Below are positions 1,557-21,615 of a stretch of 56,434 nucleotides of DNA, piece after piece. The position numbers were made by a program, and so were the translations under genes. Below the pieces are notes generated by a model. It searched no databases, was not told the DNA's origin, and saw only the letters and a list, made by a program, of their open reading frames with translations. Numbering within the stretch: the stretch's first letter is position 1; the number at the start of each line of letters is the position of its first letter. This DNA comes from Candidatus Staskawiczbacteria bacterium. Lineage in GTDB: Bacteria; Patescibacteriota; Minisyncoccia; Minisyncoccales; Staskawiczbacteraceae. The stretch lies in the NCBI GenBank assembly GCA_903845295.1, contig CAIMWV010000010.1:1-56434 (forward strand). Reading direction: 5' to 3'.

Positions 1557-2963
1557 ATGAAAATAAATTTTTTAGGAGCAGCTCAAAACGTAACCGGATC
1601 CAAACATTTAATCCAAACCCAGGGATATAATTTGCTTTTAGATTGCGGTTTATACCAGGGCAGGAGAGACGAATCCAACAGGTTAAACAGCACCCTTCCT
1701 TTTGAAGCTACAGAGATAAATGCTGCCATACTTTCACATGCGCACTTAGACCATTGCGGGACTTTGCCAATTTTAGTCAAAAACGGATTTAAAGGAAAAA
1801 TTTGCTGCACTCCGGCAACGGCGGAAATAGCAAGATATATTTTATTGGATTCTGCTGAAATACAAAAGCAGGATTGCGAATATTTGAACAGGCATTTAAA
1901 TCCCGGCGACAAGGAATTTATCCCGATTTATACGCCAGAAGATGTCCAGAAAGTTCTTGAACATTTTGAAACGGTTGATTATTTCAGGCAAACCAATAAA
2001 TGGACGGAATTAAATGAAAATATACGATTTAAACTTTACGATGCCGGCCATATTTTGGGATCTGCGATAATTTTTTTGGAAATAAAGGAAAATGGACTGA
2101 CGAAAACGCTCGCCTTTACCGGCGACATGGGCAGGGAGTATTCTCCTCTTTTGCGCTCCCCCGAATATATAGCTGAAGATACGGAAACCCTTATCACAGA
2201 ATGCACCTATGGCGACAGAAACCACAAACCCCTGTCAGATGCAACCAGCGATTTTAAAGATGTTATCGATACCGCTATTAAAAATAAAGGCAAAATAATT
2301 GTTCCAGCTTTTTCTTTGGGCAGGACACAGGACATCATTTATATCTTGCACAAACTTTTAGACGAAAAGCTCATCCCCTCTTTGCCAATATATATAGACA
2401 GCCCGCTTGCTGAAAACATCACGGAAATTTTCCCCAAATATATAAAAGATTTCAATGACAATTTCTGGAAAGATTTTGGAAGCCGCGGCGATTCGCCATT
2501 CTTATTAAAAAATTTAACGTACGTACGGTCCCAGGAAAAATCCAAAGCATTAAATAACAAACCGGGGCCTTTGATGATTATTTCTGCTTCGGGAATGTGC
2601 GAGGGCGGAAGAGTATTGCACCACCTGAAAAATAATATAGAAAATCCTCAAAATATAATTTTACTGGCGGGATACCAGGCTGAAAATACCTTGGGAAGAA
2701 AAATTCTGGAAGGCCAAAGCCCTGTAAAAATATTCGGTAAAAATTACGACGTCAGGGCCCAGGTAAAAGTCCTTAACGAATTCTCAGCCCATGCCGACCA
2801 AAACGATCTTTTGTCGTATATCTCGCATATCAAAAACTTGCAGAGAATATTCTTGGTGCATACGGAGCTCCCCCAGTCAACAGCTTTCAAAAATATATTG
2901 GAAAAATCTTATCCATCTCTGCCGATTGAAATCCCTGCAATGGGCAGTATATTTGAAGTATAA
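1557..2963 (+). CDS. MBL-fold beta-CASP RNA-processing hydrolase
   Basis: VTGSKH, LLDCG, SHAHLDHCG, AGHILGS, TGD, ECTYG, SASGM, FSAHAD motifs. Confidence 0.92.
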   Translation: MKINFLGAAQNVTGSKHLIQTQGYNLLLDCGLYQGRRDESNRLNSTLPFEATEINAAILSHAHLDHCGTLPILVKNGFKGKICCTPATAEIARYILLDSAEIQKQDCEYLNRHLNPGDKEFIPIYTPEDVQKVLEHFETVDYFRQTNKWTELNENIRFKLYDAGHILGSAIIFLEIKENGLTKTLAFTGDMGREYSPLLRSPEYIAEDTETLITECTYGDRNHKPLSDATSDFKDVIDTAIKNKGKIIVPAFSLGRTQDIIYILHKLLDEKLIPSLPIYIDSPLAENITEIFPKYIKDFNDNFWKDFGSRGDSPFLLKNLTYVRSQEKSKALNNKPGPLMIISASGMCEGGRVLHHLKNNIENPQNIILLAGYQAENTLGRKILEGQSPVKIFGKNYDVRAQVKVLNEFSAHADQNDLLSYISHIKNLQRIFLVHTELPQSTAFKNILEKSYPSLPIEIPAMGSIFEV

Positions 2964-3008
2964 AAAAACAGCAGTTTTGCGACTTGCTTGGGTCTCGTAA
3001 AGTTATCC

Positions 3009-3518
3009 TTAAAGATTCTTTACCATTATCACGGCTTCTTTAAGCTCGCTGAATCTTTCACGGTCTATTTCCCTAATGCGGACTTTCTTGAATCCGCATT
3101 TTTTGTACAAACTGATCACCGGATGAAATTGTTTTACCCGCAGACCAATTAATTTTGCTTCCAAAGTTCTTTTCGCTTGGTAAAGCGCAGTTTGTATCAG
3201 CGCTGTCCCAATCCCAAACCTCCGAAATTCTTGAGTAACTCCGATTGTCCACACCCACCATGGCGCGTAACAAACGTGGTATTTGGCAGGAATTGAACTG
3301 ACAATGATCACGCCACGTATCTTGCCCTCAACCTCGGCGACCAAAACAATCTTCGCGGTTCTGAGCTGCATCACCCAGGATACTCTGACACTCAAATTTA
3401 TTTGTTGTTCTTTCCCGCCAACTTCCAGTATGCCTTCTAAATCATCTGCTGTGGCATACCGTATAATTGTTTCTTTTCCGTCTGGTTGGAATCTTTTTAG
3501 TATCCGCTGGCCATTCAT
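3009..3518 (-). CDS. GNAT family N-acetyltransferase
   Basis: V...FRRFGIGTALI acetyl-CoA motif and LYKKCGF; AGGAGG ribosome-binding site upstream. Confidence 0.8.
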   Translation of the reverse strand: MNGQRILKRFQPDGKETIIRYATADDLEGILEVGGKEQQINLSVRVSWVMQLRTAKIVLVAEVEGKIRGVIIVSSIPAKYHVCYAPWWVWTIGVTQEFRRFGIGTALIQTALYQAKRTLEAKLIGLRVKQFHPVISLYKKCGFKKVRIREIDRERFSELKEAVIMVKNL

Positions 3519-3594
3519 GGAACCTCCTTATCGTTGATCTTAAGAACAGATTGATAATTTATCATTAACATTTTTATCACAAATGTCAATAACT

Positions 3595-3624
3595 AAAAAC
3601 ACCCGGCGCGCCGGGTGTTTTTTT
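3595..3624. terminator. Intrinsic terminator downstream of lepA (possibly bidirectional)
   Basis: AAAAACACCCGG-CGCG-CCGGGTGTTTTTTT. Confidence 0.8.
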
Positions 3625-3631
3625 ATAAATA

Positions 3632-3671
3632 TTATGCTCTGAAAACTTCTACCCTTCGGCAAGCTCAGGGT
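3632..3671 (-). repeat. REP-like palindrome (3651-3671) plus orphan duplicate lepA tail (3632-3651)
   Basis: Minus strand after the lepA stop: ACCCTGAGCTTGCCGAAGGG TA GAA GTT TTC AGA GCA TAA = EVFRA*. Confidence 0.85.
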
Positions 3672-5474
3672 CTACGCACGAAAAACTTCTAAAAATGCTT
3701 TTGTCGGGACGTTTACCTTTCCCTTTGCTTTCATCAGCTTTTTACCTTTTTTCTGCTTTTCCCTAAGCTTGTTTTTCCTTGTTATATCTCCACCGTACAA
3801 ATATCCTGCGACATCTTTCATATAGGCCCTGATTGTTTCCCTGGCGATGACTTTTCCTCCGATTACCGCCTGCAAGGCAACGGAAAATTGCTCGGGAGGC
3901 AGGACTTCCTTTAATTTTTCAACCATTTTCTTTCCCTCAAAATAAGCTTCATCCTGAGCGACAATCCTTGAAAATGCCTCCTCTTTCTGGCCGGCAACCC
4001 AAATTTCCATTTTCGCCAGCTTGCCGGGCCTATACCCTAAAAGGTTATAACTCATTGAGGCATAACCCTGGCTGGCGGTTTTTATTTTGTCGTATAAATT
4101 GGCAATGATGCCCCGCAAAGGAGTTTCAAAAATTATGATTACCCTTTCCGGACTCAGATAATTTGTCGTAATATAATTTCCTTTCAGACTCTTTAAAATT
4201 TCCATTAATTTTCCCACCTGGTTTGACGGAGCAATAACTTCCAAGGACACCCACGGCTCCTCAGTACTCTTTATTGCAGAAGGATTTTCCGGCCAGTCAG
4301 AAGCTGAATAGATCAAAATCTCCTTGCCTTTCTGGTTAAAAATTTTATAAACAACCGACGGCGTTGAAATCACCAGATCCAAACCAAATTCCCTCTGCAA
4401 TCTTTCTGAAATAATTTCTATATGCAAAGTTCCCAAAAATCCACAGTTAAATCCCCTGCCTAAAGCTTCTTTCATTTCCTGTTCAAAAACCAGCGCGGGA
4501 TCCGATAGTTTCAATTTTGACAAGGCAACCTTCAATAAATCGAAATCATCCGGATTTTCCGGATACAAGCTGGCAAAAACCATGGGCTTCGGCTTTTGGT
4601 ATCCGGGCAAAGGCTCAACCGTACCCCTTGTATTTATATTCTGTAATTTTATAATCGTATCTCCGGCTGTAACTTTTCCGGGCTCCTTAATTCCTGTGGC
4701 AATATACCCGATGTCGCCGGCCTTAATTTTATCTTTTGGCGCAAATGTCGGATTTAAATACCCTAATTCTTTTACTTCAGCCGGGGTTTTGGTTGCCATC
4801 AACTCAATTTTTTCTCCGTTGGAAATCTCCCCGTCAACAACGCGCACAAAAGCAATAACGCCTTTAAAAGAATCGTATTCCGAATCAAAAATTAGAGCCC
4901 GGAAATCATTTTTTACAGATTCTTTCGGAGGAGGAACTTCTTTTATAATTGTTGCTAAAACTTGCTCAACGTTTGTTCCGTCTTTGGCGGAAATTTTCAG
5001 AATTTCTTCCGGTAAAACCTGCAACAGATTTGAAAGCTCTTCAACTGTTTCTTCCACCCTTGCAATCGGAGAGTCAATTTTGTTTACAACCGGAATAATT
5101 TTTAGATTTTGATTTTTTGCCAATTCCAAATTAGCCAATGTCTGCGCCTGGATTCCCTGGGTTGCATCAACCAATAAAACAGTTCCTTCAACTGCTTCCA
5201 AAGACCTTGAAACCTCGTAAGAAAAATCAACGTGGCCGGGGGTATCAACCAAATTCAAAATATAATCTTTGCCCTCAAATTTATAATTCATCCTTATAGC
5301 TTTCAGCTTTATGGTAATCCCCTTTTCTCTTTCCAAATCCATAGAATCTAAAAACTGTGGCATCATTTTTTTTGGATCAATAGTTCCGGTCAACTCCAAA
5401 AGCCGATCGGCTAATGTACTCTTGCCGTGGTCAATGTGTGCAATTATTGAAAAATTTCTTATATTTTCTTGCAT
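3672..5474 (-). CDS. lepA: Translation elongation factor 4 (LepA)
   Basis: IRNFSIIAHIDHGKSTLADR, DTPGHVDF, NKID, YGGDITRK. Confidence 0.98.
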   Translation of the reverse strand: MQENIRNFSIIAHIDHGKSTLADRLLELTGTIDPKKMMPQFLDSMDLEREKGITIKLKAIRMNYKFEGKDYILNLVDTPGHVDFSYEVSRSLEAVEGTVLLVDATQGIQAQTLANLELAKNQNLKIIPVVNKIDSPIARVEETVEELSNLLQVLPEEILKISAKDGTNVEQVLATIIKEVPPPKESVKNDFRALIFDSEYDSFKGVIAFVRVVDGEISNGEKIELMATKTPAEVKELGYLNPTFAPKDKIKAGDIGYIATGIKEPGKVTAGDTIIKLQNINTRGTVEPLPGYQKPKPMVFASLYPENPDDFDLLKVALSKLKLSDPALVFEQEMKEALGRGFNCGFLGTLHIEIISERLQREFGLDLVISTPSVVYKIFNQKGKEILIYSASDWPENPSAIKSTEEPWVSLEVIAPSNQVGKLMEILKSLKGNYITTNYLSPERVIIIFETPLRGIIANLYDKIKTASQGYASMSYNLLGYRPGKLAKMEIWVAGQKEEAFSRIVAQDEAYFEGKKMVEKLKEVLPPEQFSVALQAVIGGKVIARETIRAYMKDVAGYLYGGDITRKNKLREKQKKGKKLMKAKGKVNVPTKAFLEVFRA

Positions 5475-5483
5475 TTTATTTCT

Positions 5484-7157
5484 TCAAAATTTTTGTTCCT
5501 TAGCTGGATATAAAAACTTTTTTAGGAATGAGTCAATTATGGTTTTGTTCTCGGGAGATTTTAGTAAATGGGTAGCGATGGCATAAGTTACAACGCCGGC
5601 AGTTCCGGATATAATTAATTGGAAAAATATTCCCCAGAAGGTCTGTAAGCTTACAACTGACCCGAGCCACTGCCTTATTAAAAAAGTAAGAATAAACATT
5701 ATTAAGCTGGCAATTAATATTTTATATATAGAATTATGAATTTCTTCCACGTGTAATTTTGGAAATTTTTTATAAAACATATACAAAAGCAAAGAACATT
5801 CTAAAACAGCTGTAATTGTATAAGCCAAAGCCAAAGCAATAACGCCAATATTTGCAACTCCCCCCAATCTTAATATGCTTTGCAAAAAAAGATTAAATCC
5901 GGCTGAAAACCTGACAAGCCACACAAGCAGCAAGCTAAGTGCTATATTAAAAGCAACTGTCAATCCGCTGATTATTGCCGGAATTTTTGTGTTATGGGCT
6001 GCATAAAATGTTTTTGATAAAAATAAAATAAGCGCCTGGGCAATTAAGTTTAAAGCTAAAATACCGAGGCAGGCGGTTGTTAATTTTGTATCTGCCCAGC
6101 CAAATTTGCCGACTCCCAAAACAACCCTGACTATCTGCGCCCTTAAAATCAAAAGAAGCAAACTTATTGGAACTACCAAAAAAATAATCTGGCGGAATAT
6201 GCTGGAAAACTTTCTTAAAAACTCGTCATTTTCTTCTTTCAAAAAAGCCATGGACATTGAGGGAAAGGCGGCTGTTGAAACAGAAACTGCGACAGCGTTG
6301 ACCAGAATTGATGACAAATTATTTGCCAAATTAAAAACTGCTATAGAACCTGACAACAAAGTTGAAGCAATTGCCGTGGTGGCAATTGTGTTCAGCTGCC
6401 CGGCCCCTAATCCCAATGACCTTGGAATCATCATTTTTATTGTTTTTACAACTCCGGGATCTTTATAGTTAAAACTTGCCTTATATCTAAAACCGGAAAA
6501 AAAGAATGCCGGCAACTGGACTATTAAGTGCAAAATTCCCCCCAACACCACTCCCCAAGCCAGCCCTTGCAACCCAAATTTTGGCACAAAAAATAAAATC
6601 CCGATTATTATGCCAAGGTTATATAATAAAGGGGCTAAAGCTGTTACCAAAAATCTGTGAAAAACCTGCAAAATCCCGCTTATCATATTTGAAGCCCCCA
6701 GAATAATCGGGCTCAAGAACATAATACGCATTAATATAACAGCCATTTCCTTTTTCTGTCCGGAAAATCCCGGAGCCATAAAAGAAACAATTAGCGGAGT
6801 AAAAATTATTAAAATTACGCAAACAATAATTAAAAATCCTAAGAACACATTTAAAAGCGTTGAAACATATCTCCACGCATCTTCTTTGGATTTGATTAAA
6901 TACCCGCTAAATATAGGAATCACTGCCGCTGCTATTGCGCCAAAAATCAAAATCAAAGCAATAAAATCCGGAACAGTAAAAGCTGCATAATAAACATCCA
7001 GTTCATTGCCGGCGCCGAAGGTGCCTGCTAAAAGGCGGTCTCTTAACAAACCTAAAACAGCCGATATTAAATAAGAAATTGCCAATATTAAAGAGGCAGA
7101 ACTTATGGATTTTGTCTGAGAATTAAGAAATTTTTGAATCAATTTTTTTTCTTGCAC
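5484..7157 (-). CDS. murJ: Lipid II flippase MurJ (start may be the TTG at 7142)
   Basis: LGLLRDRLLA..FGAG..LD.YYAAF..PD motif; many transmembrane helices; FYA..NTK.P. Confidence 0.93.
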   Translation of the reverse strand: MQEKKLIQKFLNSQTKSISSASLILAISYLISAVLGLLRDRLLAGTFGAGNELDVYYAAFTVPDFIALILIFGAIAAAVIPIFSGYLIKSKEDAWRYVSTLLNVFLGFLIIVCVILIIFTPLIVSFMAPGFSGQKKEMAVILMRIMFLSPIILGASNMISGILQVFHRFLVTALAPLLYNLGIIIGILFFVPKFGLQGLAWGVVLGGILHLIVQLPAFFFSGFRYKASFNYKDPGVVKTIKMMIPRSLGLGAGQLNTIATTAIASTLLSGSIAVFNLANNLSSILVNAVAVSVSTAAFPSMSMAFLKEENDEFLRKFSSIFRQIIFLVVPISLLLLILRAQIVRVVLGVGKFGWADTKLTTACLGILALNLIAQALILFLSKTFYAAHNTKIPAIISGLTVAFNIALSLLLVWLVRFSAGFNLFLQSILRLGGVANIGVIALALAYTITAVLECSLLLYMFYKKFPKLHVEEIHNSIYKILIASLIMFILTFLIRQWLGSVVSLQTFWGIFFQLIISGTAGVVTYAIATHLLKSPENKTIIDSFLKKFLYPAKEQKF

Positions 7158-7188
7158 CCTTCATATATAAATTTTATAGAAGGCTGTA
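7151..7188. repeat. GAAGGGTGC-family palindromic element, copy at the murJ 5' end
   Basis: Minus strand TACAGCCTTCTATAAAATTTATATATGAAGGGTGCAAG; similar to 9464-9500 and 13739-13776. Confidence 0.75.
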
Positions 7189-9415: not shown

Positions 9416-9463
9416 AAATATTTTATTTTCTACTGCACCCTTCCCATAAAAAATGGGGATCTG

Positions 9464-9521
9464 CTCGCAACCATCATATAAAAAATATATACAAGGTTGT
9501 GTAGATGATAATTTTTTTCAT
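9464..9521 (-). repeat. GAAGGGTGC-family element plus orphan rnhA head MKKIIIYT (9498-9521)
   Basis: Minus strand ATG AAA AAA ATT ATC ATC TAC ACA ACCTTGTATATATTTTTTATATGATGGTTGCGAG; the real gene starts MKKIIVYTDGG. Confidence 0.8.
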
Positions 9522-13656: not shown

Positions 13657-13713
13657 ACACAAAGTTCGGATAAAAAAATTAAATAATATATAAACTTATA
13701 TTTCGGAAGAAAG

Positions 13714-13801
13714 CTCGCACCCTTCATTTAAAAAATATCTTGTACCCTTCATATAAAAATTATATAGCAGGCTATATAAAAGGCTGTAAGCTTTTAATCA
13801 T
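13714..13801 (-). repeat. GAAGGGTGC-family elements plus orphan pgk-like head MIKSL (13787-13801)
   Basis: Minus strand ATGATTAAAAGCTTACAGCC...TATAGCCTGCTATATAATTTTTATATGAAGGGTACAAG...ATGAAGGGTGCGAG; the real start is MLKTL. Confidence 0.7.
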
Positions 13802-13830: not shown

Positions 13831-13920
13831 TTAAACCACTTCTTGTTGATAACACTGCTCGCCCTTCGGCTTCCCTTCGGCTCCAATCAGGGCAAGCGCT
13901 CAGGGCTTCATCTACTTTTA
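13831..13920 (-). repeat. Nested REP plus orphan array tail EQCYQQEVV* (13831-13860)
   Basis: GAG CAG TGT TAT CAA CAA GAA GTG GTT TAA preceded by GCCCTGAGCGCTTGCCCTGATTGGAGCCGAAGGGAAGCCGAAGGGC. Confidence 0.85.
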
Positions 13921-13921
13921 T

Positions 13922-15661
13922 TTATGCGACCTCGCTTTGATAACAACTTTCGCAGTAAACAATTTCCTGGCGGTCCGGAGCATATGAGGTTTCAATTTCT
14001 TTGCCGCATTTTGCACATTTCCGTGAAAATATTTTAATCGGATTCAGCTGTTTGAAACGCACCCTGTCGCGGCAAAGAGGACATTGGCGCGGGATTGGAA
14101 GATCCATCCGGCGGTAGAAATCAAGCTCCATTTTTACCAGCCTATAGTTTTTTCCGCAATCGTCGCATTTTAATATGCCGCCAAGAATCTCGTCTGTAAC
14201 GTCTTTAATATCATCTGCAAAAGAAACCGTTGCCGGTTCATACTCTTTTGCATCGGAATCCCGCCAAACATAGCCGTTGCTGACAGCTTCTTCCTTGGAA
14301 ATCGGGAAAAATTCATAAGCGCTTGTTTCATTATATGCCCACGGAGAAAATTCAGCCGGGAAATATTCTCCGTAACGATATTCTTTCTTCCGCGAATCAA
14401 TATAGGGCACTTCCATCATCTGTTTTTTAATCTTTCCCACCAAATCTTGATAGTCTTTCTTTGAGTATTGTTTATTTAAAATGCAATATTCTGAATTCCG
14501 AATTCCGACGCAGCCGAAAAGGTTTCCCGAGCCATGGCAAGCAAAACTATATTCCAAATCATGCGCATGGTAATTCCAAAAACTGAACTTGATATTATTA
14601 ACAGTAAGGCCGACCCACACCGATTCGTATATCAATTCAGAATTTTCTCCAAATATTGTATAGTCATAAGCGTCTTTCGATGGGCCCAATTTAAGAAGTT
14701 GGCCATATCGGATATTTTCTCCGTTACCTACCTGATAGGAATCGTGCACATTTTTTGAATTAAAAATATAGTCTCCGGTTACGTTTACATTTTTGCGCCC
14801 ATGGAATTGCCTGCGAGGATATTCAAGAAATAATTTTTCTGCTCTTGCCCTGAAATCATTTACGTTTTTCAATGACCCGAAATTCAATTCTTCAAGTTTT
14901 TTTGCGTATTCTTCCTTTGTGTAGGGTTGATTCAATATGTGATATTGCTTGTTACGCAAGTTAATACAGCCTATGCAATTGGAACAGCCTATGAGATCTC
15001 TTGAGAACCAAATGTCCTGTGAATCTTCGCAGTCTTGCGACCAAAACGCACGATAACACTTATTTGCCATCACAGCCTGGTAGCAAAGCTCGCTGTCATT
15101 TGTGAACGCCACGTCAAAACATTCTTTATTTTTTGCCATCGTGTTGGTATAGGCGCAATTTTCACTAAAATCACTTCTGAAGCAAAGGTAGCAATTTTTT
15201 AAATCCGCCGCGCCATTACACCAAGGGCTATTAATCATGGTCGTATGAGAAGTATAGAGGGTTGGATGAGGAACCTCGCGGAAAAGTTGAAGCCACTGTT
15301 CGAAAAATGATTTTTTAAAGTCGTATTCTTTGCCAAATGACTTTGGGTCCCATTCATCCGACCACCATTTTTCTTGCGAATAAATCTTATGCGGATTTCC
15401 CGGAGGATAAAACGTTATCCCCTCTTCCCCAGAATCAAATTTCTGGCGGTATAAAATTCTCCCGCTTGTCCACACGAAGCGCCGCATCATCCTGCACTCC
15501 GGACACCATGTGGGCGAAGGCACTTTCATCTTCTCGCAAAACGCAGAATCATCGGACTCAATCACGAACTCATTATTGCAGTTTTGGCATACTCGCACTG
15601 AGGACTTCGAGTGAGCCTCAGTCGAACTCCCTGCCGAAGTGTTTTTTGTATCGCTTTCCAT
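13922..15661 (-). CDS. Cys-rich zinc-ribbon/repeat family protein, array copy 13 (numbered in transcription order)
   Basis: CQNC..F.IE.DD..F.EK.KVP.PT.CPECR; LFGCVG...YCILNKQY; ends CAKC-x17-CESC-YQSEVA; nested REP in-frame near the N-terminus. Confidence 0.9.
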   Translation of the reverse strand: MESDTKNTSAGSSTEAHSKSSVRVCQNCNNEFVIESDDSAFCEKMKVPSPTWCPECRMMRRFVWTSGRILYRQKFDSGEEGITFYPPGNPHKIYSQEKWWSDEWDPKSFGKEYDFKKSFFEQWLQLFREVPHPTLYTSHTTMINSPWCNGAADLKNCYLCFRSDFSENCAYTNTMAKNKECFDVAFTNDSELCYQAVMANKCYRAFWSQDCEDSQDIWFSRDLIGCSNCIGCINLRNKQYHILNQPYTKEEYAKKLEELNFGSLKNVNDFRARAEKLFLEYPRRQFHGRKNVNVTGDYIFNSKNVHDSYQVGNGENIRYGQLLKLGPSKDAYDYTIFGENSELIYESVWVGLTVNNIKFSFWNYHAHDLEYSFACHGSGNLFGCVGIRNSEYCILNKQYSKKDYQDLVGKIKKQMMEVPYIDSRKKEYRYGEYFPAEFSPWAYNETSAYEFFPISKEEAVSNGYVWRDSDAKEYEPATVSFADDIKDVTDEILGGILKCDDCGKNYRLVKMELDFYRRMDLPIPRQCPLCRDRVRFKQLNPIKIFSRKCAKCGKEIETSYAPDRQEIVYCESCYQSEVA

Positions 15662-15664
15662 AAT

Positions 15665-16285
15665 TTACTTTTTATCCAAAAAATTAATTATCCGTTGTAT
15701 TTTTTTAACTTCCAGCGCATTTTTTTCTTCTCTTCCTTCTCTCCATGCTAGCCCAATTTTTTCTACCCATCCCTTCTTTTCTTCAATCAATAGGTTTGGT
15801 AACAAAACTTTCGCCTTAACTCCTAAGAATTCTTTTTCAATAGAAATATCATTATAATCACCCGCAAAACGGATTTCTTTGCCATGCATCGGAATTACTA
15901 CCTCCTTCGTCTTATCATCAAAAAAACTAATATGGATATCACAATGGGCAGCCCGTGTTGTTTCTGCGTCAATTGGATCAATTCTTAATAAATCATCCTC
16001 TCCATGCGCCTTGGATTTACAAACTAAGTGGCCTTCTTTTTCCAAAAAAATTTTTGCATCTCCAACGTTATCTCTATCGATTATGAAATCAACGTCTTTA
16101 TGATTCCTGGAAATATAACCCAGATAAGCGTCAACGGCAAAACCGGACAAAACAACATATTTCCAATTTTTTTCAGATGCCCGAATCACAATTCTCTTAA
16201 ACAAATCAATTGCCTTTTTAGTTCTTTCATCCATCTCCCCTTCAGCAAGCGGCGGGATTTCTTTTTTTAATAAATTATCGTTCAT
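15665..16285 (-). CDS. Nucleotidyltransferase, aminoglycoside-2''-adenylyltransferase/Lnu-like family
   Basis: SGFAVDAYLG..SR.HKDVDF motif and later DIH. Confidence 0.75.
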   Translation of the reverse strand: MNDNLLKKEIPPLAEGEMDERTKKAIDLFKRIVIRASEKNWKYVVLSGFAVDAYLGYISRNHKDVDFIIDRDNVGDAKIFLEKEGHLVCKSKAHGEDDLLRIDPIDAETTRAAHCDIHISFFDDKTKEVVIPMHGKEIRFAGDYNDISIEKEFLGVKAKVLLPNLLIEEKKGWVEKIGLAWREGREEKNALEVKKIQRIINFLDKK

Positions 16286-16296
16286 AAATTAATGGA

Positions 16297-16386
16297 TTAT
16301 GCCACTTCTGTATTGTAGTATTGCTTGCCCTTCGACAACCCTTCGGCACGGCTCAGGGCAAGCGCTCAGGGCTTCAGTTGCTTTTA
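16297..16386 (-). repeat. Nested REP plus orphan array tail KQYYNTEVA* (16297-16326)
   Basis: Near copy of 13831-13920: TAAATAAAAGCAACTGAAGCCCTGAGCGCTTGCCCTGAGCCGTGCCGAAGGGTTGTCGAAGGGC AAG CAA TAC TAC AAT ACA GAA GTG GCA TAA. Confidence 0.85.
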
Positions 16387-16387
16387 T

Positions 16388-18133
16388 TTATGCCACCTCA
16401 CTATTGTAGCAACTTTTGCAATAAACGATTTCTGGCCTGTCCGGAGCATAAGAAGTTTCAAATTCATTTGGACACTTTTCTTCCCCATGAGAATGATTTT
16501 TCTGCTCGCACATACATTGGCGGTGCCAAAGCTTGATAGGCGTACGCTGGGCAATCCTGGCAAAATGGCGGCAGTTCGGGCACAGTTGCGGAACCGGGAT
16601 GCCCATGCGTTTGTAAAAATTCAGATCGCTCGACGTTACCTTAAAGGCTTCCGTGCATTGGTGGTTGCATTTTCCAGCGTGGGCGCACCCGATTGTTTCC
16701 TTTAAAATTTGTTCATCAACCTGGTCAATCGAGTCCGGAATGTTTTCTGCTTTTAAGGTGATTTTATAATTCTTAGCCGCGAAATCAACCCACCTGTATC
16801 CGTTTTTTAATGCCTCTTCTTTTGACATGGGGAAAAGCTCTTGAGCGATGGTTTCGTTATAGGCGAATCCGTGCATATCCAACGGGAAGGTTGAACCATA
16901 ACGGAATTCCCTTCCCAAAGAGTCTTTGTATGGAAGCGCATCCATTTGCTCTTTGATTCTCGGCACTAATTCTTCATATTCTTCTTTGCTGTATTGTTTA
17001 TTCAAAATGCAATACTGTTTTTTCCGCAAACCGACGCAGCCAAATAAATCAGATGAACTGTGGCAATTTACGCAGTATTGGGCGCGGATTAACTGGTCCC
17101 AACATTCATTTGAAAAAAACACCTGGCTGCACTGGCGGCCGATTGAGGAGCATTCATAAATAAGCTCTGAAAAAGCGGCCCAATATGTAAAATCCATCAC
17201 ATCTTTCCCATCGGTAATTCCAAAAAGATATTTGCCGTCTTCCACTCTTTCGCAATTAAATCCTACCTTCACATTTTTGCATTGCTCTAACCAATTACCC
17301 GAAACATCAGTGCTGTGATTTTCTACAAGACACGGCACGATGTGTTTTGATGAAAATTCTGCCATTTTTTTGCGCATTTCTTCTACTTCCTTGCGACTTT
17401 TTGGCCAAAGTGTTTTAATTTTATCTTTATATTCCTCTTTTGTATATTGCTCGTTGAAAATGCAATAATTCTTATTGCGCAAATTAACGCAACCAAAACA
17501 ATCAGTACAGTTTTTACAATTTAACAAAAAGGCGGAATTTGAGCAGGTACTACATTCTCTTGAATACATCAACCTGTTACAACCATAACAATCAATGCAC
17601 TCAAAACACAGTTCAGACGAATGAATATTATAGTTGTCCATACTATCTTTTGAATCCCAAATTGAAGTGCCGTAAGAACAATTTTCGTTCGTAGAGGCGG
17701 CAAAAATAAGATAACAGTTTTTGTTGTCGCTGGCCCTGTTGGTATATTCGCTGTTTACGTTTGTTCCTTGTTGAATAATTCCCATCCTTGGAACCTTAAG
17801 GAATAAATCTTTAAGCTGCTCGAAAAATGGTTTTTTAAAGTTATAGTCTTTCCCATAAGATTCAGGATCCCATTTGTCAGACCACCAGCAAGAATAGCAA
17901 TAAACAGTGTAGGGGCTTTCCGGCGAATAAAGCAAAATTTTTTCTTTACCGCACAGATTGCACTTTCTTTTAAAAAGAGACCTCTCGCCCCTCCACGCCA
18001 AACGTTTGACCAGCCTGCACTCCGGACACCACGTCGGTGGCGGCACTTTAATCTTCTCATAAAAATTAAAATCGTCGGGCTCAATCATGAACTCCTTTTT
18101 ACAGTTTTGACATGTTCTTTTTTGGCTTTCCAT
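16388..18133 (-). CDS. Cys-rich family protein, array copy 12
   Basis: Same conserved blocks; internal CNLC-x17-CYSC; ends YCKSCYNSEVA. Confidence 0.9.
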   Translation of the reverse strand: MESQKRTCQNCKKEFMIEPDDFNFYEKIKVPPPTWCPECRLVKRLAWRGERSLFKRKCNLCGKEKILLYSPESPYTVYCYSCWWSDKWDPESYGKDYNFKKPFFEQLKDLFLKVPRMGIIQQGTNVNSEYTNRASDNKNCYLIFAASTNENCSYGTSIWDSKDSMDNYNIHSSELCFECIDCYGCNRLMYSRECSTCSNSAFLLNCKNCTDCFGCVNLRNKNYCIFNEQYTKEEYKDKIKTLWPKSRKEVEEMRKKMAEFSSKHIVPCLVENHSTDVSGNWLEQCKNVKVGFNCERVEDGKYLFGITDGKDVMDFTYWAAFSELIYECSSIGRQCSQVFFSNECWDQLIRAQYCVNCHSSSDLFGCVGLRKKQYCILNKQYSKEEYEELVPRIKEQMDALPYKDSLGREFRYGSTFPLDMHGFAYNETIAQELFPMSKEEALKNGYRWVDFAAKNYKITLKAENIPDSIDQVDEQILKETIGCAHAGKCNHQCTEAFKVTSSDLNFYKRMGIPVPQLCPNCRHFARIAQRTPIKLWHRQCMCEQKNHSHGEEKCPNEFETSYAPDRPEIVYCKSCYNSEVA

Positions 18134-18144
18134 GTTGTTTTTAA

Positions 18145-18164
18145 CGGCTCAACGCGTTGAGCCG
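18145..18164. repeat. Perfect 20-bp palindrome between array genes
   Basis: CGGCTCAACGCGTTGAGCCG is its own reverse complement. Confidence 0.8.
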
Positions 18165-18171
18165 ATGGATT

Positions 18172-19857
18172 TTACGCTATTTCTGCATTGTAGCACTGTT
18201 CACAGTAAATTTTGAATTTCTTTTGACTTTCTGGTGAGTATGAGGTTTCTATGTGTTTACCACAATTGGCACATGCTCCCGCCCAAAGATTCCTTGGGTT
18301 TCGCGTCGCCATTCGTCCTGCATGCCTACAATTAAAACATTGCGATGGAAGTGGGAGTTTGTTTCTCTTATAAAAATTTACTTCTCGATTGATGAGTTTA
18401 AAATTTTTTTGGCAACTTGTACAAGCAAGTGTTTCATTCATAAGCTGATCGCTATATTCTTCCGGGTTTTTCGGTAAATTTTCATGTTCGATAGTTCCTT
18501 GTCCTTTTGTGCTAGGAATATCATCTTTCCATGTAAAGCCTTGGGCCAGAGCTTCTTCTTTGTTTAGTGGCATATACTCATTAACTATTGCTTCGTTATA
18601 ACCAAAAGGGCTTAATTCTTTTGGAAAAAATAATCCCCAATCGCTAGTCTTTTTCAAATTTTCAATGATTTTTTCTTTTAATTCTTCGTATTCTGCTTTA
18701 CTATATTGCTTGTTCAAAATGCAATAAGATTTTTTGCGAAGTCCATAGCACCCGAAAAGATTGTTGCAGTTATGACAATTATCCGAGTAGCAAACATCGT
18801 GTGAATCAACTATCTCGTGGGAACCAATAACCCTATTACTGTTTAGCATGGTCAAGACTTGATAACATTCTGACAAATCACCGGTAAAAGATACGTCGTA
18901 TGAATCTATTGCCTTTCTTACTGTAAAACAAAATTTAGAATCCTCTCCGCTTTTTATATCAAAAGAATAATGAACGTTATGTGCATTGTATATATGATTC
19001 CCAGAAACATTGTTGTTGTGCGAACCGAAGAAAGCGCGCTGGGGAATTTTTGTACGTAAAACATCTCGCTCTTTTAAAATATAATCTATACTTGATTTTT
19101 CTTTTAGCGGATACTTTGATAGAAAATTTTTGTACTCTTCTTTTGTAACTGGCTTATTAAAAATGTTGTAAGACTTATTTATTTGTCCTACACAACCAAT
19201 ACAATTTAAACAATTTCTACAATCAAAAAGTCCAATACTGTCTACGCAACTCTCGCACTCTTGCGAATAAAAAAGTTTCGATGATTCTAAGCAATCGACG
19301 CATTCGTAACAAGATTCTGATTTAAATAGGTATAGATTATCTACCGAATCTCGGCAATTCCAAACAATATGACCATAATCACAGTCTTCATCGTTTAGAC
19401 CACCGAAGATAAGATAGCAATTTTTGCTTTGATTGATTTGGTTTGCATACTCACAATTCTCGGTCTCGGAATTCATCACGTTAACGCGCGGAACTGTATT
19501 GGATAATCTGGCGAGTTGAGTAAAAAATGGCTTCTGGCTATCAAAATCAATCCCGTAAGTCATGGGGTCCCAGTCATCACTCCACCATTCAGATACACTA
19601 TAAACAGGAAAGAGTGCGTCGGGACCATACGCAGAGACAATCATGTCGCCAGATTTACTAGATGGCCTTTTATACAATGTTTTAAAATTTCTAAAAAGCA
19701 TACGCAACTGCTGACGGCATTGTGGACAAATTTCCGGCGCTGGGACTTTCATTTTTTCGTAGAAAGCAAAATCATCGGACTCAATTACGAAATCCTTTTT
19801 GCAGTTTTGGCAGACTCGCACTGAGCCTGCCGAAGTGTTTTTGGTTTCCGATTTCAT
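18172..19857 (-). CDS. Cys-rich family protein, array copy 11
   Basis: Family blocks; in-frame REP encoding TSAGSV at 19819-19837; ends YCEQCYNAEIA. Confidence 0.9.
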   Translation of the reverse strand: MKSETKNTSAGSVRVCQNCKKDFVIESDDFAFYEKMKVPAPEICPQCRQQLRMLFRNFKTLYKRPSSKSGDMIVSAYGPDALFPVYSVSEWWSDDWDPMTYGIDFDSQKPFFTQLARLSNTVPRVNVMNSETENCEYANQINQSKNCYLIFGGLNDEDCDYGHIVWNCRDSVDNLYLFKSESCYECVDCLESSKLFYSQECESCVDSIGLFDCRNCLNCIGCVGQINKSYNIFNKPVTKEEYKNFLSKYPLKEKSSIDYILKERDVLRTKIPQRAFFGSHNNNVSGNHIYNAHNVHYSFDIKSGEDSKFCFTVRKAIDSYDVSFTGDLSECYQVLTMLNSNRVIGSHEIVDSHDVCYSDNCHNCNNLFGCYGLRKKSYCILNKQYSKAEYEELKEKIIENLKKTSDWGLFFPKELSPFGYNEAIVNEYMPLNKEEALAQGFTWKDDIPSTKGQGTIEHENLPKNPEEYSDQLMNETLACTSCQKNFKLINREVNFYKRNKLPLPSQCFNCRHAGRMATRNPRNLWAGACANCGKHIETSYSPESQKKFKIYCEQCYNAEIA

Positions 19858-19860
19858 ATT

Positions 19861-21615
19861 TTATACTACCTCGCTATTATAGCAACTTTCGCAGTAAATT
19901 ATTTCAGGACGTTCCGGCGCATACGGCGTTTCAAATTCATTCGCACAATTCGCACTGCCGTGAGAATGATTTTTCTTGTCGCACATGCATTTTCTGTGCC
20001 ATAGCTTAAGGGGGTTTCTTTGGGCGAGGCGTTCGTAGTGCCTGCAGTTGGGGCACATCCTTGGTAAGGGTAAGTTCGCCTTTCTGTAGAATTGCAGCTC
20101 TTCTTTGATTATTTTAAAGGCGGTGGTGCATTGGTGGTTGCACTCACCTTTGTGGCCACATCCTATTACCTTGCCGATAATATCATCGCCGACATCTTTG
20201 ATATGGTCCGGCAAGTCTTGCGATAGTATGTCTATTTTGTAGGTTTTCTCTTCCGGATCTTTCCAGCGATAACCTTGCGGCATGGCCTGTTCTTTGGTTA
20301 AGGGAAAGTACTCTTGGGCAATGGTTTCGTTGTAGGCAAAGGGGCTCAATTCTGAAGGGAAAAATTCGCCATATTTATAAACTCTTCCCTGCTTATCGAC
20401 ATACGGCATATCTGCCATCTGTTTTATAATTTTGGAAACCAGCTCCTCATATTTTTCTTTAGTGTATTGCTTGTTCAAAATGCAGTATTGCTTGCTTCGC
20501 AGTCCCGTGCAGCCAAAAAGATTCTGCGATCCCGTACAGTTTAGAGAATAAGAAACATTTGTGCTACCCTTGATAACCTGGCTGAACAGATAATAGGCGT
20601 TTTCGGTGGATTCAAAGCCAAGCGAAAGCGATTCGTACAGCATTTCACCGCGGCTTAAGCCATAAACATCATAAGAATCCTTCAGCCCGATGCCTATGTA
20701 GTGAGAGAAGGCGGAATTTTCGTAGTTATCTCCGGAAAAATCAAAGCACTCCTTGCAATTCTTTGAATTTTTAAGGTTATCCCCCGTAGATTGGGCTGTC
20801 TTAATCATCTGGGCATATTTGCGCAGCGCTCCTTTTCGGAGGTCGTTATACTTTTCAATGTGCTCTTGTAAAACCGCGTAGCTTCCTAAGTCAATCTGTT
20901 TCAGCTTTGAAAGATATTCCTCTTTGGAATAAGGCTGGTTAAACAGATAGTATTGCTTGCCCCGGAGGTTCACGCTGAAAGAGCAGTTCTGGCAATTCCT
21001 GCAGTCGAAAAGGAAATTTGAGTCTGTGCACGCATCGCAATACTGGGAATACTTCAAGTTGTACGAATTCTCGCATTGGACACACTGGTAGCAGCGCTCG
21101 TTACGCGTGCCGGTGTAACAATCAATGCTGTCTTTACACATGTAAATGCGGTTGGAATACAAGATGCCCTCGCTCTCCCTGCCAGCAATTTGCAAGTAGC
21201 AGTCTTTGGCCCCTGACATATAATTGCAGTAATCAGAATTGCTCGGCGTGGTATTAAAAAGCGCCATGGAAGGCGTGCGCTGCAGCAACTCCAAAAATTG
21301 GGTCATGAAGGGGCGGGAGAAATTATAAGCAACGCCTGCAGCCATGGGATCCCAGGAATCCGACCACCAGCAGTCTTGACAATAAACGACGAACGGCGAG
21401 TCGGCCGGATAAATCGAAACCATCTGCTTGCCGCACTGTGCACAATTCCGGCGGTACAGCGCCCGCTCATTTCTCCAAGTCATCCTGCGCTGGTTGCGGC
21501 ATTCTGGACAAAAAGTCGGCGGAGGCACTTTAATCTTCTCATAGAATGAAAAATCATCGGGCTCGATGATGAAGTCTTTTTTACAATTTTGGCAAATTTT
21601 GGTTTCTTGTTCCAT
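19861..21615 (-). CDS. Cys-rich family protein, array copy 10
   Basis: Family blocks; ends YCESCYNSEVV. Confidence 0.9.
   Translation of the reverse strand: MEQETKICQNCKKDFIIEPDDFSFYEKIKVPPPTFCPECRNQRRMTWRNERALYRRNCAQCGKQMVSIYPADSPFVVYCQDCWWSDSWDPMAAGVAYNFSRPFMTQFLELLQRTPSMALFNTTPSNSDYCNYMSGAKDCYLQIAGRESEGILYSNRIYMCKDSIDCYTGTRNERCYQCVQCENSYNLKYSQYCDACTDSNFLFDCRNCQNCSFSVNLRGKQYYLFNQPYSKEEYLSKLKQIDLGSYAVLQEHIEKYNDLRKGALRKYAQMIKTAQSTGDNLKNSKNCKECFDFSGDNYENSAFSHYIGIGLKDSYDVYGLSRGEMLYESLSLGFESTENAYYLFSQVIKGSTNVSYSLNCTGSQNLFGCTGLRSKQYCILNKQYTKEKYEELVSKIIKQMADMPYVDKQGRVYKYGEFFPSELSPFAYNETIAQEYFPLTKEQAMPQGYRWKDPEEKTYKIDILSQDLPDHIKDVGDDIIGKVIGCGHKGECNHQCTTAFKIIKEELQFYRKANLPLPRMCPNCRHYERLAQRNPLKLWHRKCMCDKKNHSHGSANCANEFETPYAPERPEIIYCESCYNSEVV

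Follow-up and report, generated by a model that had tools for sequence, protein, structure and literature searches.

Organization of the lepA 3′ end

The window, which is the whole 56,434-nucleotide (nt) stretch from Candidatus Staskawiczbacteria bacterium analysed here, carries on its minus strand a lepA (EF4) gene whose last codons are present twice: once as the translated gene end and once, 40 nt further on, as an untranslated relic that spells the same residues with different codons. The two copies are separated by a short hairpin that belongs to a dispersed repeat family. Comparison with a close relative indicates that two alleles of the gene end have been joined at this point, and similar arrangements recur at other genes of the same genome. 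The lepA open reading frame (ORF) matches the Pfam families GTP_EFTU (E = 6.9e-55), LepA_C (E = 9.7e-36) and also EFG_C. The elements of its 3′ end are the following.

3672-5474, minus strand: lepA (EF4) coding sequence, 600 amino acids (aa) (ORF list, Pfam, sequence)
3689-3672, minus strand: translated lepA end, GAA GTT TTT CGT GCG TAG, with the stop at 3674-3672
3682-3691, minus strand: left block L in the translated copy, TAGAAGTTTT, repeated exactly at 3642-3651
3651-3671, minus strand: hairpin repeat copy, 21 nt, ACCCTGAGCTTGCCGAAGGGT, made up of ACCCTGAG-CTTG-CCGAAGGGT
3632-3651, minus strand: untranslated relic of the lepA end, TA GAA GTT TTC AGA GCA TAA
3595-3617, minus strand: intrinsic-terminator-like hairpin CACCCGGCGCGCCGGGTG followed by T5, with a 12-bp helix in the minimum-energy fold

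The gene reads through ...GCA TTT TTA into GAA GTT TTT CGT GCG TAG. The first base of the hairpin directly follows this stop and its last base is the first base of the relic, which continues into AAAAAAACACCCGGCGCGCCGGGTGTTTTT; the terminator lies 14 nt past the relic stop. Both copies encode EVFRA*, and they differ at 5 of 18 nt, all of them synonymous, with TAG as one stop and TAA as the other. The preliminary description of this locus had these two ends exact to the base, and TAG does flank the hairpin on either side, as it had said. By local alignment the duplicate spans 19 nt, of which 15 are identical, with a period of 40 nt. The copies are mosaic: their first 10 nt are the same, while the last 10 nt contain five differing sites, all synonymous. 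The intervening element had been called a palindrome; it belongs to a real repeat family that is enriched at duplicated gene ends, but its stem comprises only 5 bp (ACCCT/AGGGT) around an 11-nt interior, with an RNA folding energy of -5.4 kcal/mol.

The relic is out of frame with lepA (40 mod 3 = 1), and its frame contains an in-frame TGA that is followed by no start codon (frames read by eye). Readthrough, a frameshift or a small ORF at the relic are ruled out by these reading frames, and the relic probably has no function of its own. An Rfam scan of positions 3300-3900 (E ≤ 10) returned only sub-threshold matches of the small-RNA or terminator-like kind, the best of which scored 27 bits against a gathering score of 90. 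Logan contigs from three runs (X1, X2 and X3, which belong to one study and possibly represent the source sample) cover the lepA structure without any difference, and the contigs of four runs contain no excision joints, no indels and no contig that skips the structure.

Comparison with a close relative

The close relative L072, a metagenome locus, aligns with the window on both sides of the scar. Three further features of the window are involved.

1557-2963, plus strand: convergent beta-CASP/RMMBL RNase gene, 468 aa (Pfam)
2964-3671, no strand: interval from the lepA stop to the stop of the convergent gene, about 709 nt (blastn against L072)
3009-3518, minus strand: GNAT acetyltransferase gene, 169 aa (Pfam Acetyltransf_7 and Acetyltransf_1)

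By blastn, L072 1-1953 corresponds to window 5624-3672 (97.8% identity) and L072 2038-3450 to window 2962-1550 (92.1%). The homology breaks off exactly at the lepA stop and resumes 84 nt on, in the convergent RNase gene, so that an unrelated 84 nt occupies the place of the ~709 nt that hold the hairpin, the relic, the terminator and the GNAT gene. The window's genome (G000) thus has a direct repeat of the target flanking the insert and L072 has an empty site, though the L072 DNA downstream also differs. As L072 lacks both the hairpin and the second copy, the lepA event is recent. The 250 nt before the lepA end contain five mismatches between the two strains, corresponding to about 0.4 expected differences in 20 nt, against the five found between the copies (Poisson estimate, P about 6e-5). 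The copies therefore differ far beyond the divergence from L072, which implies that their differences predate the event and that two alleles of the gene end were joined. A replacement of the 3′ end by a homologous allele had been proposed for this locus; the juxtaposition of two alleles agrees with it, but only the last 10 nt differ. Both lepA and the RNase gene are mosaics of tracts that are 85-100% identical between the two strains, with long lepA stretches at 99-100%.

A second scar lies across the same interval in L072, at the end of the RNase gene (L072 1990-2045), where GDTFEV* is followed by ACAAA, a copy of the hairpin repeat and GQSFEV*; the end of this gene in the window is plain. 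The translated RNase end in L072 resembles the native end in the window (11 of the last 12 nt), and the relic resembles the end found in another species, G019 (19 of 21 nt). The scars at lepA in one strain and at the RNase gene in the other indicate that, since their split, the sister strains have each gained one scar marked by a hairpin, both within the same 100-nt slot.

The GNAT gene has promoter-like and terminator-like signals of its own, the promoter-like stretch lying between the terminator behind the relic and the gene. At E ≤ 1e-10 it is found only in the window's genome among 201 genomes of the order, and the 26 genomes of the genus contain only weak matches (best E = 7.4e-12, 36% identity). 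It is a strain-specific cassette in the lepA slot.

Recurrence across the genome

The genome to which the window belongs comprises 0.78 Mb in 35 contigs and is 95% complete. Among its 1112 ORFs of at least 100 aa, seven have their last five residues and stop repeated within 150 nt downstream, compared with a mean of 0.05 and a maximum of 1 in 20 permutations. One of the seven is a tandem tRNA artefact. This is the scan that the preliminary description had called for, and matches do not occur at the chance rate. A coding-blind nucleotide scan found seven ORFs that match at 19 or more of 24 nt, where 0.2 would be expected. Altogether, about 10 other gene ends in this genome and four in the relative G005 have the duplicated-end layout, and their periods spread over all three frames. 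Gene starts are also duplicated: three such ‘ghost starts’ reach at least 20 of 24 matches, with none expected.

The mosaic structure seen at lepA is a common property of these duplicates. The identical left block spans 10 nt at lepA, 19 nt on contig C11, 22 nt on C6 and 35 nt on C7, and the differences are clustered in the last 10-16 nt. In one duplicate, at C1 28095-29369, the last 33 nt are still the same in both copies.

Most duplicated ends in this genome carry a promoter-like module in place of the hairpin. The module is about 45 nt long and consists of a -35-like CTCGCA/CTTGCA, a -10-like TATAGA/TATAAA and then AGGCTGTAAA; its 14-nt core occurs in 10 exact copies, and blastn finds more. 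It lies between the duplicated ends, just ahead of the relic, which then becomes the leader of the next gene. These inserts overlap the duplicate through similar, non-identical sequence (AAGGCTGTAAAA and AAGCTTATAAAA), and at six other genes the second joint is the 3′ end of the module. In two of the three ghost starts the module is reversed between the copies. In G005, three duplicated ends flank members of a GC-rich element family of about 130 nt (GGGGGTCGGGGAAATTGGG...), for which Rfam gave no match at E ≤ 0.01.

C1 28095-29369, C6 4736-5965, C7 22202-22636, C11 9473-11122, C30 35847-36788 and C35 38013-38564: duplicated ends with the promoter-like module
C35 1261-1734, C32 16441-17385 and C10 25174-26955: ghost starts
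G005, contig C1 104213-104344, 107100-107237 and 425595-425736: duplicated ends flanking the ~130-nt element
Window 7154-7188, 9461-9496 and 13712-13790: further promoter-like module sites

Within the window, the hairpin type of scar also occurs in a group of tandem paralogues.

13922-21615: four treble-clef zinc-finger paralogues, of which those at 13922-15661 and 16388-18133 (minus strand) are scarred
13831-13854 and 16297-16320: relics of these two paralogues' own ends

Both scarred paralogues have a nested double hairpin and a relic, with paired ends reading CYNSEVA*/YYNTEVA* and CYQSEVA*/CYQQEVV*. Their downstream regions are homologous only as far as the relic stop. Within either paralogue the first three codons covary, and paralogue 4 has an end similar to their translated ends. 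A 206-aa ORF between them (15665-16285) has weak nucleotidyltransferase matches (Aminoglyc_resit, E = 3e-5; NTP_transf_5, E = 3.9e-4).

Nature of the differences between copies

We compared the two copies at 14 duplicated gene ends, 10 in the window's genome and four in G005, part of which had been picked by peptide match. The 14 pairs contain 46 synonymous and 13 non-synonymous codon differences, and 53 of the 72 differing sites are third positions. At G/C sites, the share of differing sites is 34 of 54 in third positions and 11 of 87 in the other two (Fisher P = 7e-10). An unbiased subset (at least 19 of 24 nt matching), counted by hand, shows changes at 19 third, three first and three second positions. 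These counts support the conclusion that the differences reflect coding constraint and not slippage or neutral decay, in agreement with the earlier proposal that both copies had been under coding selection. Neutral A+T-biased decay of the relic is an unlikely source, because first and second positions are spared even at G/C sites. The left block is thus one allele copied twice, and the right parts are two alleles. A diversity-generating retroelement was considered and rejected: the differences lie mostly at third positions, include T-to-C and C-to-A changes, and are not confined to template adenines.

The copies also differ in composition. Across the 14 pairs the relic is A+T-richer at the differing sites (37 strong-to-weak against 15 weak-to-strong changes, P = 0.003), and the translated copies have rarer codons than the relics (30 against 16 codons, P = 0.054; per-case Wilcoxon P = 0.017). 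The translated copies are G+C-richer, and TAG stops are frequent among them.

The hairpin repeat family

The motif NNN-CTGAG-loop-CGAAG-NNN has 65 matches in the window's genome; in 53 of them the outer stem is complementary and the loop short. Pairing is kept at stem positions 2 and 3 in 56 and 59 of the 65 copies, respectively, versus 38 with shuffled partners, and C-G, T-A and G-C pairs all occur. The three bases before the hairpin are mostly CTT. Thirty of the 53 hairpin copies lie inside ORFs of at least 100 aa, and copies are sometimes nested in the loop of another copy. The core CCCTGAGC-N2-6-CGAAGGG is present in 79 of 301 sampled genomes of the phylum, and a reversed-pattern control gave 0 in every listed genome. 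A flanking direct repeat beyond chance is absent at 51 of the 53 hairpin copies, indicating that the hairpin normally makes no target duplication. It had been suggested that the second junction coincides with the repeat. At lepA the joint is indeed at the hairpin edge. Most duplicated ends in this genome, however, have the promoter-like module, and 51 of 53 hairpins lie outside any duplication.

The Y1 transposase family (Y1_Tnp, PF01797) has no match in the 95% complete genome, in a search whose control matched 6 of 14 reference genomes. There is likewise no match in this genome to the TnpB-type nuclease family (PF07282), which weakens an RNA-guided reading with the relic as guide. Six GIY-YIG matches are present, and a long-loop CTGAG...CGAAG hairpin is found no more than about 300 nt from three of the five small ones. 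One such pair is in the window, 2.3 kb from lepA.

1124-1363: 79-aa GIY-YIG-only ORF, between tRNA-Met genes at 1044-1118 and 1382-1453
1016-1045: long-loop CTGAG...CGAAG hairpin beside this ORF
15602-15624 and 19818-19838: in-frame hairpin copies inside the reading frames of the zinc-finger paralogues

In G009, G016, G018 and L073, the same tRNA-like gene and the start of this ORF are found directly after lepA.

lepA ends in relatives

The tail-hairpin-tail layout at lepA occurs in three of 26 genomes of the genus: that of the window, G010 and G021. The right joint in G021 is the same as in the window, with a 47-nt nested hairpin. In G010 the joint is 6 nt further upstream, and 9 of 24 nt differ between the copies, changing one amino acid. 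Tail duplicates are absent from all 80 metagenome lepA loci, and a scan at the peptide level, covering 418 ORFs from 109 loci of the genus and of metagenomes, recovered only the two known lepA cases.

Comparing the lepA ends of relatives with both copies, as the preliminary description had advised, places one of them. The relic is identical to the natural lepA end of 4 of 88 relatives that encode EVFRA*, but the translated end equals none of the 88. The natural ends nearest to the translated copy are two differences away, and of its codons CGT occurs in 6 of the 88, GCG in 16 and TAG in 11. A sliding-window search for the nearest neighbour of lepA among 20 species of the genus was uninformative, since all are about 80% identical and synonymous sites are saturated. 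The arrangement of lepA followed by the GNAT gene, as expected for a donor, is absent from 110 loci, 201 genomes of the order and 26 of the genus.

The DNA behind lepA turns over in the genus, and its downstream neighbours vary among 22 members. In the pair L141 and L142 the lepA ends are identical over 300 nt and the DNA is unrelated from the first base past the stop, with neither relic nor hairpin, a clean exchange of DNA right at the end of the gene.

Formation of the scar

We favour, at about even confidence, an origin of the scar by homology-facilitated illegitimate recombination of the one-sided kind, in which the out-of-register joint falls at the hairpin. The recombination route and any active role of the hairpin are inferred from the arrangement of the sequences. 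DNA taken up from a related lineage would have been exchanged at the 3′ boundary of lepA, leaving two alleles of the last 10 nt 40 nt apart. One joint would be in register and resolved by homology in the last conserved block, so that lepA reads into a complete end and stop. The other would be illegitimate, placed a few bases too far upstream at the exact 3′ edge of the hairpin, and would lead into the second copy and the DNA behind it. Homologous recombination would be unable to remove a leftover as short as 10-35 nt, and the duplicates would for this reason fall in a narrow size range. The hairpin would mark the illegitimate joint and perhaps make it.

The joints at the hairpin edge have 1-3 nt of microhomology. 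In the window's genome this is T or TAG. The joint reads ...GGGT/AGAAG there and in G021, ...GGGC/GTTT in G010 (native GCG TTT, sharing GC) and ...GGGC/CAA in the L072 RNase gene (native GGC CAA, sharing GGC). Genes assigned by sequence to DNA uptake and recombination are present in the genome, with matches to the ComEC family (E = 1.8e-52) and RecA (E = 1.2e-128). RecA is matched twice, at C12 28231-29016 and at C31 2-721 (the end of a 1.7-kb contig), which may reflect strain heterogeneity in the bin or a real duplicate.

Either copy may be the newcomer, and this may differ from case to case. The relic at lepA runs without a break into the terminator and GNAT gene, which are missing from L072, and its arrival together with them would explain everything by one event; in the L072 RNase gene, too, it is the relic that resembles another species' end. 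In G021, the relic runs on into the genus-typical neighbour gene, which points to the translated copy as the newcomer, as do the rarer codons of the translated copies and the finding that the translated lepA end equals none of the 88 natural ends, four of which match the relic.

Several observations weigh against the favoured account. The signs of direction just given conflict. A donor-like or pre-event allele was found in none of the lepA loci and genomes searched. The L072 lepA end, TTC CGA GCA TAG, has three differences from the translated copy and two from the relic. Synteny breaks relative to G005 are not enriched at hairpin-bearing intergenic regions (2 of 6 versus 57 of 275, P = 0.6), in a comparison that is underpowered. 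Recombination of this kind occurs only rarely in the laboratory systems covered by PMC5361080. All three lepA hairpins are accompanied by a relic; among 105 other loci that extend 40 nt or more past the gene, none has a hairpin beside the lepA stop without a relic. It thus seems that the hairpin came in and the gene end was duplicated in a single linked step, something not expected from plain homology-facilitated illegitimate recombination. The coupling fits better with a cassette that spreads by recombination of its flanking blocks, or with an active role of the hairpin in the joint.

Such a cassette, consisting of the recoded last codons, the stop and the hairpin between direct repeats, would have arisen once by insertion with duplication and then spread between species by block recombination, in the manner of homing. 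A small GIY-YIG nuclease may help, and the recoded end would keep the gene both working and different from the naive target. This is possible, if unlikely. It accounts for the absence of a relic-free hairpin at the 105 lepA loci and for the identical left block beside a differing last 10 nt; GCG TAG, a hairpin closed by A..T and the right joint are common to the window's genome and G021; the translated copies are codon-atypical; the duplicate on C1 with its identical 33 nt could be a young stage; and of the six GIY-YIG matches three of the five small ones lie near long-loop hairpins, one of them close to lepA. However, there is no nuclease gene at lepA and no ORF in the 20-nt insert, and the 79-aa GIY-YIG ORFs have only the catalytic domain, which together with the many different target genes makes site-specific cleavage unlikely. 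The hairpins of the window and G021 differ by a compensated stem change, that of G021 being nested, and may be independent insertions; the joint in G010 is displaced by 6 nt; and a 10-nt flanking repeat is very short for homologous recombination. Transposition of the hairpin into lepA with a target-site duplication of about 20 nt, followed by divergence in place in which the translated copy changed only synonymously and the relic drifted towards A+T, would fit the repeat-element-repeat geometry, an element that begins right past the stop, the A+T-richer relics and the identical duplicate on C1. We think this quite unlikely. The event postdates the split from L072, at 2% divergence, but 5 of 20 nt already differ between the copies; CGT to AGA requires two changes that preserve arginine; the differences are clustered and avoid first and second positions of the relic even at G/C sites; 51 of 53 hairpin copies lack a target duplication; and a relic identical to 4 of 88 natural lepA ends has not decayed.

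Two other explanations carry little weight. Synonymous replacement gene ends are typical of integrative elements, as in phage 21 and e14 in icd, and the scar could in principle be the remnant of an integrase-type element that targeted the lepA 3′ end, carried a replacement end (attL/attR) and was later deleted to 20 nt. This is very improbable: the only tyrosine recombinase gene in the genome (PF00589) is on contig C27 and not at lepA, the spacer is exactly one dispersed 21-nt repeat and not a pair of att arms, only 20 nt lie between the repeats, the repeat core spans no more than 10 nt, about 10 different genes are scarred in a 0.78-Mb genome, and full-length integrase elements were seen at 0 of 105 lepA loci. 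A functional recoding device (readthrough, frameshift or splicing) would be in keeping with the same peptide being encoded by both copies, and assembly error or chance could also be invoked; all of these are hardly credible. The 40-nt offset shifts the frame, and the relic's frame has a TGA and lacks a start codon; other genes have periods in every frame; independent contigs agree; and the permutations exclude chance.

Homology-facilitated illegitimate recombination, the account we prefer, leaves room for a more active hairpin. In a form that we regard as doubtful, the phylum-wide hairpin would itself do the work of joining DNA: it would serve as a cap or adaptor on the non-homologous end of incoming or rearranging DNA, possibly be cut by the small GIY-YIG nucleases that accompany its long-loop relatives, and then be ligated into the chromosome at minimal microhomology. 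It would then be an agent of cassette turnover at gene boundaries, and the recoded duplicated ends would be its footprint where it lands a few bases inside a gene.

Implications

Ultra-small host-dependent bacteria have hardly any classical mobile-element machinery, yet their gene content changes fast at fixed slots between conserved genes. The scars can be read as dated, base-resolved records of DNA entry, each with a clean homologous joint, an illegitimate joint at the hairpin and a second allele that rescues the gene end. An active hairpin would amount to a new way of integrating DNA, and a very compact one; with a passive hairpin, the scars remain a practical marker of recent recombination in metagenome-assembled genomes. 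They also call for care in annotation, as gene callers can be misled by ghost gene ends and starts and by in-frame inserts of 8 residues.

Comparison with known systems

The REP/REPIN elements with their RAYT transposases and the Rickettsia palindromic elements are short structure-conserving palindromes present in tens of copies, and the Rickettsia copies are often inside reading frames. The hairpin described here is likewise an imperfect palindrome, with 53-65 copies and a stem kept by compensatory changes. It differs in that there is no Y1 transposase, 30 of 53 copies are intragenic, copies are nested instead of forming inverted doublets, and one and the same 19-nt core is spread over a whole phylum. 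Free-standing GIY-YIG homing endonucleases, such as the products of the phage T4 seg genes, bring about co-conversion of flanking markers, and Allomyces atp6 is a hybrid gene with a displaced native end. These resemble the lepA scar in the combination of a mobile insert, a foreign adjoining coding copy and a native end left as a relic. At lepA, in contrast, no nuclease gene lies between the copies, and many unrelated genes are affected.

Insertion with long target duplication has been described by Furuta, Abe and Kobayashi (2010; PMC2853133). In that account, direct target repeats at the 3′ end of a gene flank an insert that has no transposase or integrase, mostly in competent species, as is the layout here. 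Their repeats span 26-65 bp, are 44/46 to 49/49 identical and enclose restriction-modification genes, whereas the lepA repeat spans 19-20 nt with 15 identical and the inserts here are a 21-nt hairpin or a module of about 50-90 nt. In C-terminal displacement at rhs, contact-dependent inhibition (CDI) and type VI secretion system (T6SS) effector loci (Jackson et al. 2009, as cited, and Kirchberger et al. 2017; PMC5361080), a new 3′ end captures the gene and the old end is left downstream as an orphan. Those displacements exchange different toxin domains and create diversity; here the same 5-17 residues are encoded again, leaving the protein unaltered, and the orphan measures 20-60 nt and is not a domain.

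The closest parallel to the favoured account is homology-facilitated illegitimate recombination in transformable bacteria (de Vries and Wackernagel 2002, Prudhomme et al. 2002 and Meier and Wackernagel 2003, cited in PMC5361080; PMC3240628). As summarized in those sources, one joint is in homologous register and the other is at a microhomology of a few bases, with foreign DNA trapped beside a conserved anchor gene; ComEC and RecA genes, as noted, are present in the window's genome. The scars described here differ in that the illegitimate joint is always at the exact edge of a dispersed hairpin, the trapped stretch is as short as 20 nt, the same gene is scarred in three species and no donor allele was found. 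In the literature surveyed, mostly at the level of abstracts, we found no description of the hairpin or of recoded duplicated gene ends. None of the processes compared unites a dispersed 21-nt hairpin at the joint, a recoded end encoding the same peptide and recurrence at many genes. The arrangement at lepA is thus a variant of known illegitimate-recombination and displacement processes, in which the hairpin is possibly an active partner.

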